Shown here: one piece after another, positions 21,001 to 27,000 of the stretch
Numbering within the stretch: the first letter of the stretch is position 1
Layout: each line of letters starts with the position of its first letter
Source of the DNA: Escherichia coli
GTDB lineage: Bacteria; Pseudomonadota; Gammaproteobacteria; Enterobacterales; Enterobacteriaceae
Reading direction: 5' to 3' (one strand)
NCBI RefSeq assembly: GCF_041886205.1
Contig: NZ_CP169029.1
Length of the DNA: 64,000 nt
Made by a program: the position numbers

Positions 21001-24000
21001 GACGGGAGACTGTGATTTCAGACATAATCGATATTCCTTTTTGCAGATAAATGAAAACGCCAGCCGTGTTCAGGCTGGCGTCAGTGGAATGAAGTCTGGT
21101 GAGTGAGATGATGAGTGAGACTCACCGGTTCTGGTGCTGAAGCTGCAGTTGGCGCAGGGTACGGATATCCTCTCTGGCCTGTTCGATACAGGGCAACAGT
21201 GCTGCTGAATCCGTTTTATCCTCATTGTTGTCAAAGATAATTCCCGATTCGCAGTCGATATTGTCCTGCAGCCACGCAATCAGAATATCCAGCGCTGTTT
21301 CCGTGGTTAATGATTTCATGTTGTTTCTGGTTACCAGTCGAAAGTGGGTAAACCCGGCAGGCATTCAGCGCTGGCATCCAGATGAATGAGACTGACGCCA
21401 TAACGTCGGGTAAGTGTGACAACCAGACGGCGGAACGTTTTTGACAGCCCCAGGCGTTTAAGCCGCAGAACCGGGTATGACCACGCATCGGTACGTAACA
21501 GATATCCGCTACCTGTGAAATGAATCCATTCTGATTCGCCGGTGTCATTCGTCTGATGTGACAGCGAGTACAGCCAGGCGTTGTCCTTTGCAGTGATATG
21601 CGCGGTACTGCAGCGTATGCCGGTCAGGGCAGCAAATGGTGGCGTGCAGTCTGTTGAGACCCGGTCAGATTCATCAACAACACGAAGGGAGTGGCCATTG
21701 TCGCAGACCACGTTAATCAGTTCAGCGAGATTAACACCATCGACGTCAACGACAATTCGTCCCATGTTCAGCGCCTGCACGTTAACGCTGTCTGCTTCCA
21801 GCGTCAGAGTCAGTTTCATTGTTTCGCCTCCGGATGCTTCCCCTGGGTAATGTTATTTACCGTTCTGTAATTGTCGCGGGTCATCAGGCCGGTCGCCCTG
21901 CGAGCCCGGAGGATATCGATGCTGTTTATTAACTGAGAACGGGTACAGGCACTGAATTCCGGCTGGTCGGTACGCACCAGTGCGTATTTTTCAACAAGAA
22001 AGTTCACTGCATCGCACAGTGAAATGCCAGCTTCAATATGCTGCTCAATCACACATTCATCGGCAAACGGTGTGTCATTCAGTGTGAGGCCATAATGCTG
22101 GTCCAGCAGTCGGATGAGCAGTGTCTGCCAGATGGTGACGGGAGACGGGCAGCGAGATACCTCCCGTACATGTGTGTCGGATAATGTTTTCATCTTAAGT
22201 TCTCTGTAACTGGTAGTGCTAAAGGTGAGAGCTTCGGGGTTATGAGGTGGTTGCGGGTGTCTGTGCCGGATAAACAGCCAGATAAACGTAACCACAGGAG
22301 CCGAGGGTGTCGGCTTCGCAGGTCTGCCCTTTTGCATACAGCGTGACGGTATGCTGATTTCGGGGATTCAGTTCACCGCTGGTGAGCATGAGCTCCAGTT
22401 GTTTCATCAGCAGCGGAAAGGCCTGGTCCAGATGGTATGCATCTGCGTCGCTGAAGCGGCCTCTGATACCGGCGCGGTCGGCAAGGTAATGCAGGCGGTT
22501 ACCCTCCTGCACCAGACGGGCACCAAAACAGGGCCTCACTGTGCAGGGAAGCCCCCACCAGGGGCGGTCGTGATTGTCGTCGGGATGAGTTATCCCGGAG
22601 AGTTTGTCTGACACGATAAAATCCTCTCTGAAAAGTGGTTAAGAATGGTTTAACGATGACAGGTCAGCCGGCGCGCTGACCGGTTTCGGTGAAGATGTAT
22701 GCATTGACAAGAATGGCCTCATCCACAGCGGCGTCTGAGTCCATCTGGTCGTACTCGTTTTCCGGGTGACGGAACATCAGTTCAGGGTGACGCTCATCAG
22801 CCGGACATACGGGCCAAAACTGTCCTTATGGCGTTCAGCAAACACGGCCAGCACACCGGGAATATCCTGCACTTCACGACCGGTATACGCTTCAGTGCTG
22901 CCGTGCCAGCGGTATTTGCCGGTACAGAAAGGAAAAAGACGGGATGCCGGATGTTGTTGGTGAATACGCATGGCTTCACCACGGGTGATGATTTTCATAG
23001 TGGGATACCTCTGAAGACAGAAGATAAAAGTGAAAACAGGTGTGATGTGGTTGTGACGGGTTAAAGCAGACCATGTTCGGCAAAGGAGAAAACCTGGTTG
23101 CCACCGACTATCAGATGGTCCGGCACCCGGATATCCACCAGGGCCAGTGCCTGTACCAGACGTTCGGTGATAAGCCGGTCTGCCTTACTGGGTGTGACTT
23201 CACCGGACGGGTGATTGTGTGCCAGCACCACGGCAGCGGCATTGTGATACAGGGCGCGTTTAATCACTTCCCGGGGATGGACTTCCGTGCGGTTGATGGT
23301 GCCGGTGAAGAGGGTTTCACCGGCAATCAGCTGATTCTGGTTGTTCAGATACAGCACCCGGAACTCTTCACGCTCCAGTCCCGCCATGTTCAGAATCAGC
23401 CATTCTCGTGCCGCACGGGTGGAGGTGAAGGCCACGCCGGGTTCATGAAGATGGCGGTCCAGGGTTTTCAGGGCCCGTTGAATGAGACTGCGCTCGCCGG
23501 GCGTCATTTCTCCGGGCAGAAAGGAAAGCTGCTGCATTGTCCCTGCCTCCATTCAGTCGATGATGCGCATAATGGCGCTGCATTCCGGATGCTGCAGGGC
23601 GTAATCCCGCAGCCGGTAATAATGGACCGTCATGGCATAACACTCCGTACGACAGGCGTGATGACTGTACGTCATCAGACAGGCAGCAATGCCGGCGGCT
23701 TCCGGGCTCATTTCAGCGCGGTTGCCGTTCATGGCATTGAACAGTACCCATGTTTCGTCATCATCGTCATCCGGTTCGGGGGCCATAAATGCCCCGCCGT
23801 TGTTCAGAGTGTACAGATTCCAGATACCACCGCAGTAGTCTTCGCACAGACGGTCCATCCAGCCGAAAACACGGGGCTCCAGGGTCACCCACTGTGGAAT
23901 GAGGCCAAAATGCTGCGGCCAGAAGCTGATGCGCTGTTCATCAGGGACTATGGTGGCAACCAACTGAGGCTGGTCATTCCCTGATGCAGCGGTTACGGAA

Positions 24001-27000
24001 ACAGAAGATGTGGTGGAATTATGTGAAATGGTTTTCATGAAATGACTCCTTAAAGGACAAATAAATGCGTGGTTTTCAGGGTAATGGCTGAATCAGCGCA
24101 GGCTCTCCAGCAGGGTTTCCGCCATCACCCACAATGCGCGGTTGAGCTTAATGTCAGTGTCAATGCTGTGAATGGCACGGGTATGGATACGTTTTCCTTT
24201 AGCGCTGCGACCTGAAATTCCGCCTTTCAGCATATTCTCCTGAATGGTCTGATAAGCACTCCACAGGTCCTTACCGTAATCCTCCCGGCGTCGTGGCGTC
24301 AGAATGTCGGCGGTGGTGACGGGCTGATGTTCGTCACCATAACGGTAAGTCAGTGCCGCCTGTGCCAGCGCCTGGCGTGCCGGTGGCGGCAGAATCAGCG
24401 ACTGCATGGCATCACGCTTTTCCTCAATCCGGTCAAAAACCCCCACCACCTCGTAAGCCCCTTCAATGACTCTGTCCACCACATTTCCCCGGTGCGGAAC
24501 ACGCACTTCCCCCAGAGACTGACCACAGACGCATCCGTTCTGGCAGACGAACCTGAAGTAACCCGGCAGCATCTGGTAGCTGGAGGTACCGTCATGAGAG
24601 TTGAGCAGAATAATTTCAGGGACATGTTCTCCGTTTATCTCTCCGGCCCGCCGCAGACGCAGCATGTGTTTTGTGTATCCCCGGCGGCCCGGGTCGCGCA
24701 CACGGGTCTGGCAGGCGAAGAATGGCTGAAAGCCTTCCCGCTGCAGGCTTTCCAGTACGGTGATGGTGGGGATGTACGTATAGTTCTGGCTTCGGGACGT
24801 GTGTTTATCTTCCCCGAAAATCCCCGGCACATAGTGCATCAGTTCTTTGTGTGTCAGCGGACGGTCACGGCGTATCTGGTTCGCATAACCAAAACGACTG
24901 GCTAGTCGCATAATTTGCTCCTTATCGGTGGTTAAGATTTACTGGTGTAATAAATGAAAAAGCCACGTCTCCCGGAGAAGACGCGGCCTGATGGGTGAAA
25001 TGAATGACGTTTATTGTCTGAGAAGACCGTCACTGGCGAGCCGCGTATTAAGCACCTTTCCGGCATCGGGTTCAGAATTCCGGCAGCACCAGCGTCGCTG
25101 ACCTTCCGCGTTGCGGATAACCCGACGGAAATGCATTCCCGGGTCATCCTGGATAAACACATTGCGGTAAGCGGTTATGACAGCAACCGCCTGCCCGTAT
25201 GAGAAAGATCCTTCAGCCAGGACATACTCTGTGTAACCCGGCATATCGGTTTTCTCCTGATAAATAAAAAGCCTCTGCCACGCGTTGTGACAGAGGCTGA
25301 AGCATGAAACTGACTTCAGGGATCAGTTAACGTTTTTTCCGGAAACGGTAATCAGCAGTGGATGGTAGTCCTGGGGATTGAAAACCGATAACGGCAGACT
25401 GACACGATGGCCGTTACTTTCTTCAGTTGCTTTAATGATTTCGGTTGTGGCGACATTTTCCACGCACTCCGTTTCCAGAAATGCGTCTGTGGTTCGCGTG
25501 GCATTACTGTCACCAAAAGCTTCCGTTTCCATTTTTCTGGTCACCAGCGTCTGACCATATTTGTCTTTGAGTTGCAGAGTGATGGTGAGGGGGCCAAATC
25601 CTTCATCGTTTCCGCCATTATCCAGCCGGAACTGGTAAGCACAAATATTTCCCGGGAGCCATATCCTATCTGTATTGCGTATACTGATGTAACGTTGATC
25701 CTGTGCCCGGAGTGGGGCAGACCACGTTAACCCCAGAATGAAGGCGGTAATCATGCAGGTTTTGAACAGGTGAATCATGGTATTTACCTCTCTGAGTCAT
25801 GACGATGACACTGACAAATCAGGTGATAAAGCGTAAAAGGCGCAGAATAGCCGTTATGCCGGTAACTCCGGGGGTAATGCTTCTTCCAGTCGGTTAACCA
25901 TATTGCCGAGATGGGATGCATCATATTCCATGACGGGGCGTTGCCTGATGATACTGACCACCAGTGGTTTGATTAACATATTGGTCGCGGCCCGTTGTTG
26001 TATACCGGCGGCGAAAATGATCTCCAGAGCATTCTGATCGATAACACGGGCCAGATTCTCGTTCAGATTTTCAATCTCATGTCCGGTCAGCAGGAAACTG
26101 CCGGCAAGCCATGTCACCTGCTCCTGAATCATTGCCAGAATTTTGACGCGATCTTCTTCAACCAGCGCTCCGGCAATTTTTCCTGATACAGCGGAGGCAA
26201 TCATTCCCCCCAGAACACCGCCAACCACACGCCCTGTCAGTGCACCAAATGGTCCCAGTGGACTGAACAGTATCCCGCCCGCCACTGACCCGACAGCTCC
26301 ACCTGCCACACCGGAAGATGCCACGGCAAGATTCCTGATGAACTGCGTACCGGAGATCCGTCCCCGCAACATTTTGATCATGTCAGGGCCGGTTGTGACA
26401 GCTACCAGTGCCAGAGATGTCACCAGCGTACCCTTCATCACTTTGTTCAGGGCACTGATATTTCCTGCACCGGTCCCCTTCTGAAGAGCCAGTCGGACAG
26501 TCGGGCTGGCAGTCGAAAAATCAATGTGCTTCAGCATACCCTGAACAACACTGAGCCGGTGGAGTTGCTGGGTTGTGACGTAGACAGCCAGTGTGCGGGT
26601 GAAGGTTTTTCCTGCCTGGACAGCAGCTGTCTGCAGGGCAGCATCGCGATCGCCGGTGCTGAGCCAGAAGACCGATGCCGTCAGGGCAAAACTGATCCCT
26701 CCGGCCGCCAGACTGACAACCGAACCCTCGGCAATATCATAAGTGACCGATTCGATGGTCCCGAACCGGGTGATATTACGGGCCTGAGTATAAGTCAGAT
26801 GTCCCCGACGAATCAGCCGGGACGCTTCTGCGGGATCGGTTACACCGGGTACTTTACCTTCGCGGATCTTATTCCTCATGGTTTCAACAGCGCCGGCATA
26901 CTGATCACGGGGGACTTCCAGTTGCATGGGGCCATTATTTCCCATGTAACGATACTGTCCGTTTTGTCCGTCGAATGCCGCACCGACGCTACGGGCTGCA

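Follow-up and report, generated by a model that had tools for sequence, protein, structure and literature searches.

In Escherichia coli K-12, there are three modules in which a CbtA-family toxin gene follows its antitoxin gene: cbtA/cbeA in CP4-44, ykfI/yafW in CP4-6, and ypjF/yfjZ in CP4-57. CbeA is said to neutralise CbtA indirectly, by bundling FtsZ and MreB filaments, as reportedly described by Masuda et al. in 2012. The toxin CbtA binds the H6/H7 loop of FtsZ and the flat face of MreB (PMC5624674), and YkfI/YafW and YpjF/YfjZ are likewise pairs of a toxic and a neutralising protein (PMC5371832). The cassette is not new: it is already annotated in RefSeq, and its toxin–antitoxin pair is characterised in K-12. 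The subject of this article is a copy at positions 21122–24911 of a window of 64,000 nucleotides (nt), i.e., the whole stretch of DNA that was analysed, from E. coli assembly GCF_041886205.1 (contig NZ_CP169029.1); all coordinates are window positions. With a probability of about 0.85, this block is an intact CP4-44-type copy of an accessory block that is conserved in E. coli genomic islands of the P4-integrase type, at the end away from the integrase gene, and it carries the toxin–antitoxin pair named in a first-pass annotation.

In K-12 CP4-44 the genes run yeeP–isrC–flu–yeeR–yeeS–yeeT–cbeA–cbtA–yeeW, in the same order and orientation as in the window, and the shared segments have 89–98% DNA identity. 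The CP4-6 and CP4-57 modules also have the family order of the window (DUF932 ... antirestriction, RadC, DUF987, antitoxin, toxin), but their proteins are only 56–82% identical to those of the window, their toxins and antitoxins are shorter (105–113 amino acids), their spacers are 20 nt, and no DUF5983 or DUF957 gene is annotated 3′ of either toxin gene.

Gene content and affiliation of the block

Gene content was derived from a listing of open reading frames (ORFs) and a Pfam scan of the ORFs in the window. The genes of the block lie head-to-tail on the minus strand; the list runs in the direction of transcription, followed by the two outer neighbours.

24960–24989, minus strand: terminator-like hairpin (13 pairs and a T-run) 3′ of the DUF905 gene; upstream boundary of the DUF932-to-DUF957 block
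24093–24911, minus strand: DUF932 gene, 272 amino acids, YafZ/YfjQ family (Pfam E = 7e-52); an AAGGAG ribosome-binding site precedes it
23553–24038, minus strand: ArdB-type antirestriction gene, 161 amino acids (PF03230, E = 2e-37)
23061–23537, minus strand: RadC-like JAB/JAMM gene, 158 amino acids, full-length form of K-12 YeeS (Pfam RadC, E = 3e-45)
22777–22998, minus strand: DUF987 gene (YeeT), 73 amino acids (Pfam E = 3e-38)
22664–22776, minus strand: deletion scar that retains the final 36 codons of a 214-amino-acid gene (alignment with fuller copies)
22240–22614, minus strand: cbeA, yeeU-type antitoxin gene, GTG start, 124 amino acids (PF06154, E = 8e-54)
21816–22193, minus strand: cbtA, yeeV-type toxin gene, 125 amino acids (PF06755, E = 7e-60)
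21331–21819, minus strand: DUF5983 gene, 162 amino acids, intact form of K-12 YeeW (Pfam DUF5983_N and DUF5983)
21122–21319, minus strand: DUF957 gene, 65 amino acids, beginning 11 nt past DUF5983 (annotation in strain ZYB39 by the NCBI Prokaryotic Genome Annotation Pipeline, PGAP)
21056–21082, minus strand: terminator-like hairpin (10 pairs and a T-run) 3′ of DUF957; likely end of the transcription unit
19096–21025, minus strand: DUF4942 gene, methyltransferase-related, split by an insertion sequence (IS) (Pfam; PGAP on the identical ZYB39 region)
25011–25244, minus strand: DUF905 gene, 77 amino acids, usual upstream neighbour of the block (Pfam E = 2e-16), with its own flanking terminator-like hairpins

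The six genes from DUF932 to cbtA had been named in the first-pass annotation, and each of them was recovered on the minus strand where that annotation places it, with Pfam matches that span the profiles essentially end to end (E between 1e-37 and 1e-60), a set of matches that, as judged from the profiles, is far beyond chance. Their order, family assignments and intactness are borne out by Pfam, the alignments and collinearity. The region 21000–25300 has 100% DNA identity to E. coli ZYB39, in which PGAP annotates exactly the same genes.

To compare the K-12 islands, the proteins of CP4-44, CP4-6, and CP4-57 were extracted and globally aligned to those of the window. RadC is 99.3% identical to YeeS of CP4-44, whereas it is 82% identical to the CP4-6 and 73% to the CP4-57 paralogue; the corresponding values are 95.9% (YeeT) versus 64% and 56% for DUF987, 87.7% versus 59% and 63% for CbeA, and 86.3% versus 58% and 61% for CbtA. 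The DUF932 protein is 74–75% identical to YafZ/YfjQ. The blastn matches to K-12 CP4-44 are collinear in the window, running from the gene for the GTPase YeeP through flu and yeeR to yeeW, and an IsrC-type RNA (Rfam IS102; 31629–31865, minus strand) lies upstream of the Ag43 gene, as it does in K-12. The proposed affiliation with CP4-44 is thus upheld by the identities (86–99% compared with 56–82% to the paralogues), by the collinear segments and by the IsrC-type RNA.

The differences from K-12 CP4-44 include deletions on the K-12 side. K-12 lacks the counterpart of 23514–26849 (3.3 kb), which comprises the 3′ part of a gene for an 840-amino-acid YeeR, the IrmA, DUF905, DUF932, and ardB genes, and the first radC codons; it also lacks about 21205–21712, i.e., the C-terminal domain of DUF5983 and the 5′ half of DUF957. 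K-12 YeeR (510 amino acids) corresponds to the 5′ part of the 840-amino-acid form, cut by the K-12 deletion and overlapping yeeS by 4 nt. In addition, the yeeT–cbeA spacer is 162 nt in the window and 73 nt in K-12, the cbeA–cbtA spacer is 46 nt and 88 nt, respectively, CbtA has C15 in the window and R15 in K-12, and the chromosomal site is the glc side in the window as against cobU/yeeA in K-12. The module had been called complete, which holds relative to K-12, whose deletions the window does not share, but not relative to CFT073, ETEC-2265, and E. coli B. These three strains have the same eight genes as the window, with 84–98% protein identity, but also carry a 214-amino-acid gene between yeeT and cbeA, of which the window retains only a 113-nt scar; CFT073, ETEC-2265, and EcPF5 carry a gene for 81–89 amino acids between DUF932 and ardB, which the window lacks.

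The ratio of nonsynonymous to synonymous substitution rates (dN/dS) was calculated by the Nei–Gojobori method for the window versus four to six diverged copies. The values are 0.07–0.14 for DUF932, 0.22–0.25 for ardB, 0.08–0.20 for radC, 0.09–0.30 for DUF987, 0.28–0.65 for cbeA, 0.08–0.32 for cbtA, 0.19–0.27 for DUF5983, and 0.11–0.14 for DUF957. By this measure all eight genes, including those for DUF5983 and DUF957, are under purifying selection and are kept as protein-coding.

The spacing within the block is tight: 54 nt between DUF932 and ardB, 15 nt between ardB and radC, 62 nt between radC and DUF987, 162 nt (the scar) between DUF987 and cbeA, 46 nt between cbeA and cbtA, −4 nt between cbtA and DUF5983 (an ATGA overlap), and 11 nt between DUF5983 and DUF957. 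Most starts are preceded by a Shine–Dalgarno-like motif. The coding strand has strong terminator-like hairpins at 25298–25270, at 24989–24960 (before DUF932), and at 21082–21056 (after DUF957); from DUF932 to DUF957, there is no strong terminator-like hairpin outside coding sequence. Because the spacing is tight and the hairpins bracket the block, with none within it, a single transcription unit from 24911 to 21122 fits, and the block is most likely transcribed as such. Two ORFs on the plus strand, antisense to the block (303 amino acids, 23073–23984; 192 amino acids, 24327–24905), have no Pfam match and were taken to be shadow ORFs, a by-product of the high GC content of the coding strand. 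An Rfam scan of 20600–25400 gave no family even at E ≤ 1, and PADLOC defence models had no matches among 10 module proteins at E ≤ 1e-3.

The toxin–antitoxin pair and its partners

The CbtA_toxin match covers positions 1–112 of the 112 in its profile, and the CbeA_antitoxin match positions 1–100 of 101; cbeA lies directly upstream of cbtA on the same strand. The toxin gene had been drawn as an ORF of 173 amino acids (21816–22337), which does not hold: PGAP and the K-12 homologues place the start at 22193, and the ATG at 22337, with which an N-terminally extended toxin would overlap cbeA, is missing in 6 of 6 other copies examined. Thus, on comparison of the copies, cbtA most likely starts at 22193 and encodes 125 amino acids. 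An alignment of the toxin and antitoxin with their homologues, which had been suggested as a check, was made with nine sequences, and neither CbtA nor CbeA is truncated. F65 is invariant across all nine CbtA homologues, including that of the window; with the change F65S, CbtA, YkfI, and YpjF all lose the ability to bind FtsZ (Heller et al., PMC5624674). YkfI and YpjF share both F65 and C15 with the CbtA of the window. CbeA matches the solved structures 2INW (E = 4.6e-75) and 2H28 (YeeU; 1e-71) in the Protein Data Bank (PDB), and also YfjZ; the PDB search found no CbtA structure.

By homology to K-12, CbtA would bind FtsZ, via the surface around F65, and MreB, so that division and elongation stop, and CbeA would counter this by bundling FtsZ and MreB filaments, without binding the toxin. 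The pair probably stabilises the island.

Several points weigh against this account. Residues 5–15 of the window CbtA differ from those of K-12 CbtA, and Cys15 is the very change that abolishes MreB binding in the K-12 background (R15C). Cys15 is, however, the residue that YkfI, YpjF, and all aligned CP4-44-type copies from outside K-12 naturally have, so that R15 of K-12 is the outlier; moreover, YpjF binds MreB with its natural C15, and the change C15R makes no difference to it (PMC5624674). R47C in CbtA is unique to the window copy, at a position that is variable among paralogues, and the ribosome-binding site of cbtA is weak. A scan of both strands of 20600–25900 for the sigma-70 consensus gave 0 sites, compared with 4.2 ± 1.9 in shuffled sequences, which in itself is a mild depletion; because there is no consensus promoter in this region, the predicted operon structure and its expression stay unproven. 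Finally, the activity of this particular cbtA/cbeA allele is read from homology, and its probable role in stabilising the island is likewise drawn from the K-12 homologues.

The 162-nt spacer between yeeT and cbeA contains an ORF of 37 amino acids (22664–22777), the ATG of which overlaps the yeeT stop codon, an arrangement that could be taken for a small protein coupled to yeeT. Alignment with fuller copies rules this out. The window and EcPF5 share a clean deletion of about 550 nt, from just past the yeeT stop to codon ~178 of the 214-amino-acid gene; the deletion junction, at which TGA meets TG, creates the ATG by accident, and the remainder of the ORF is the in-frame tail of the 214-amino-acid gene. 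The dN/dS of the 37-amino-acid ORF is 0.89–1.71. Judged from these alignments, the spacer is the scar of the deleted gene, and the ORF, which by its dN/dS evolves neutrally, should not be annotated as a gene. The junction form is present in 3044 of 5426 complete E. coli genomes, and the deleted segment in 1941 of them. The 214-amino-acid gene bears the NCBI name “antitoxin of toxin-antitoxin stability system” and has 2895 homologues, which are ~61% identical even in Alphaproteobacteria; the label “antitoxin” is NCBI naming, behind which no evidence was found. In some E. coli, a single ORF joins the 214-amino-acid gene to cbeA (protein P0020 and ~15 others, of 342–343 amino acids), P0020 reading ...FTEAGLRAG-LPEDFIV-SDKLHET.... 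Such fused ORFs show that deletions readily arise in the spacer between the two genes.

The antirestriction gene had been described as klcA-like. It does belong to the antirestriction family PF03230, but it is of the ArdB type rather than the KlcA type, as its product matches the ArdB structure 2WJ9 with E = 1.4e-100 and the KlcA structure 2KMG with 8e-21. ArdB reportedly alleviates type I restriction in vivo (said to be a result of Serfiotis-Mitsa et al. 2010, the 2WJ9 paper), and by analogy the ardB product of the window would block type I restriction by the host. The RadC ORF extends from 23061 to 23552; its start is most likely at 23537, judging by a GGAGG just upstream and by the resulting length of 158 amino acids, like that of YkfG. 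Its JAMM motif HNHPSGEVTPSKAD (HxHx7Sx2D), read from the translation, is intact, and the protein matches PDB 2QLC (E = 9e-26), making RadC/YeeS a putative metalloprotease-like protein. Its CP4-57 paralogue YfjY/LfgB has been claimed to be a protease that cleaves MqsA (PMC10846083), a claim not evaluated in the present analysis.

The two ORFs 3′ of cbtA had been described as uncharacterised extras. They are indeed functionally uncharacterised, but they are regular members of the module in named families, not extras. In a profile search the 162-amino-acid ORF proved to encode a two-domain, full-length DUF5983 protein (DUF5983_N and DUF5983), for which the PDB holds no fold relative. The second ORF, given earlier as 80 amino acids, is the 65-amino-acid DUF957 gene according to PGAP, as the upstream ATG is not conserved; it has no match in current Pfam or NCBIfam, and the name DUF957 rests on the PGAP annotation. 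DUF932, DUF987, DUF5983, and DUF957 are regarded as conserved partners within the block, with no function assigned. On the far side of DUF957, the DUF4942 gene is split by ISSfl8, an IS of the IS110 family (~19363–20734; transposase 19662–20666, minus strand), into an N-terminal piece (20735–21025, a 96-amino-acid ORF) and a C-terminal piece (19096–19362), and the same insertion is present in ZYB39. An intact DUF4942 homologue matches phrog_6263, annotated “DNA methyltransferase” (E = 1.7e-14).

Other readings of the block

The best of the alternatives, though a tentative one that is considerably less probable than an accessory block of the CP4-44 type, is that the DUF932-to-DUF4942 genes are mainly a leading-region-like cassette for establishment and anti-defence on a mobilisable island, with products that act early after conjugative entry. 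The anti-defence islands in the leading regions of plasmids (Samuel et al., Nature 2024, PMC11541004) resemble the block in having an ArdB/KlcA-type gene, a toxin–antitoxin pair, a gene related to methyltransferases and small genes that are uncharacterised; leading regions in general are enriched in antirestriction and methyltransferase genes, in genes for toxin–antitoxin pairs or orphan antitoxins, and in genes that have yet to be characterised (PMC11541004), and the match of DUF4942 to a family annotated as DNA methyltransferase is in keeping with this. Furthermore, distant homologues of DUF5983 occur in conjugation contexts without any CbtA gene. Six loci of such homologues were read, of which two gave no context and four were informative. 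DUF5983 adjoins DUF932 and a NikA-like/relaxase pair in one (L010) and an SLT transglycosylase gene in another (L011), it lies with DUF932 near IncFII RepA on a 290-kb plasmid in the third (L013), and the fourth (L017) is an F-type leading region with the order ParB_N–PsiB–PsiA–N6_Mtase–...–DUF5983–SLT–TraM–TraL/E/K. Lastly, in a screen of an F-like type IV secretion system, YfjX (ArdB-like), CbeA, YagB, and YfjZ were among 32 translocated chromosomal proteins (PMC11288057).

If the cassette did serve establishment, ArdB and CbeA may be delivered as proteins through the type IV secretion system of a helper, and the role of CbtA/CbeA would correspond to that of flm (hok/sok-type) in the leading region of F. 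Stated in full, the proposal is that the nine-gene block (DUF932, ardB, radC, DUF987, cbeA, cbtA, DUF5983, DUF957, DUF4942) is to a chromosomal island what the leading region is to a plasmid, with DUF932 and DUF5983 derived from genes adjacent to an oriT or a relaxase gene, ArdB and CbeA deliverable via the secretion system of the helper, and CbtA/CbeA serving in establishment as well as in addiction; at odds of about one in four, this is unlikely. Unlike the plasmid islands, the block is chromosomal, at the end of an island, and in the parts of the window examined, no oriT, relaxase gene, type IV secretion system gene, ssb, or psiB was found beside it. The DUF4942 gene, its methyltransferase-like member, is IS-disrupted in the window, and translocation in the secretion screen was a rare event, with frequencies of about 1e-7 to 1e-5 per donor (PMC11288057). 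The evidence from context consists of four informative loci, and a place beside such transfer genes is seen for distant homologues of DUF5983 and DUF932 but not for the block itself.

As a separate observation, the DUF5983 homologue of L017 (plasmid CP048245.1, 8001–8291 of the locus) is a protein of 96 amino acids that comprises only the C-terminal domain; its gene lies next to those for SLT and TraM, on the edge of the leading region that is nearer to oriT. A DUF family of E. coli islands is thereby connected with genes that enter early in plasmid transfer.

It is improbable that CbtA, CbeA, and DUF5983 form a three-component system in which DUF5983, translationally coupled to cbtA, is a modulator or sensor of the toxin. 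The stop of cbtA overlaps the start of DUF5983 in an ATGA both here and in K-12 yeeW, DUF5983 follows cbtA in all full copies examined, the gene is under purifying selection (dN/dS as above), and H74 and D79 in its CSTAHIT..DN motif are nearly invariant. However, CbeA still neutralises CbtA in K-12, where yeeW is cut to 64 amino acids, the YkfI/YafW and YpjF/YfjZ pairs work without DUF5983 (PMC5371832), and distant DUF5983 homologues occur with no CbtA nearby.

It is very improbable that the pair has lost its function and is decaying as the remnant of a cryptic element: the degradation nearby (the IS in DUF4942 and the yeeT–cbeA deletion scar), the failure to find a promoter consensus, and the unique R47C together with Cys15 in CbtA would fit such decay, but the Pfam matches of both proteins cover the whole profiles, F65, which is the same in all nine aligned homologues, is present, C15 is the usual residue in every non-K-12 copy, and dN/dS is 0.08–0.32 for cbtA and 0.28–0.65 for cbeA as against 0.9–1.7 for the true scar in the same test.

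Surroundings and significance

The window begins its relevant order with glcB–glcA, followed by a Wadjet system and the end of the island (the split DUF4942 gene, the block, DUF905, IrmA, the 840-amino-acid YeeR, Ag43, the IsrC-type RNA, and the YeeP GTPase), and then by IS elements and cargo for adhesins and contact-dependent inhibition (CDI). The island adjoins the glc locus, the usual site of such islands, and there is no tRNA gene in the window. The Wadjet (JetABCD) anti-plasmid system is complete, with four genes on the plus strand at 11920–18605 between glcA and the island end, which encode DUF3375 (498 amino acids), DUF4194 (254), SbcC/AAA_29 (1095), and DUF3322 with JetD_C (394). In ZYB39 this site holds an sslE–gsp type II secretion cluster instead, and in strain CFIAFB20190167, the Wadjet system is degraded.

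Upstream of DUF905 there is a gene of the IrmA family (interleukin receptor mimic; 25323–25778, minus strand), which the hairpin at 25298–25270 follows, and beyond it the gene for the 840-amino-acid YeeR-like membrane protein (25854–28376, minus strand), which has no Pfam match. Three Rfam matches in the window are above the gathering score: the IS102 match mentioned above, the C0719 small RNA by glcA (9525–9746, minus strand), and the Hfq-binding RNA STnc490 (40159–40282, plus strand). The segment 42651–64000 (IS66 elements, a fimbrial usher gene, and hemagglutinin-repeat/CDI genes) is also 100% identical to ZYB39, but it lies ~3.6 Mb from the cbtA block there, which points to a rearrangement through IS elements in one strain or the other.

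DNA similar to the block is present in 5004 of the 5426 complete E. coli genomes, at a median of three places per genome. For this widespread cassette, the window provides an undeleted reference for what K-12 CP4-44 holds as a wreck, with intact DUF932, ardB, DUF5983, and DUF957 genes and a full-length RadC gene. What is added to existing knowledge is modest: the recognition of the deletion scar, the evidence that DUF5983 and DUF957, which lack fold relatives, are genuine genes under selection, and the occurrence of DUF5983 and DUF932 homologues in leading regions. Through the contextual link of DUF5983 and DUF932 to conjugative leading regions, half a dozen DUF genes carried by almost every E. 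coli gain a hypothesis that can be tested.

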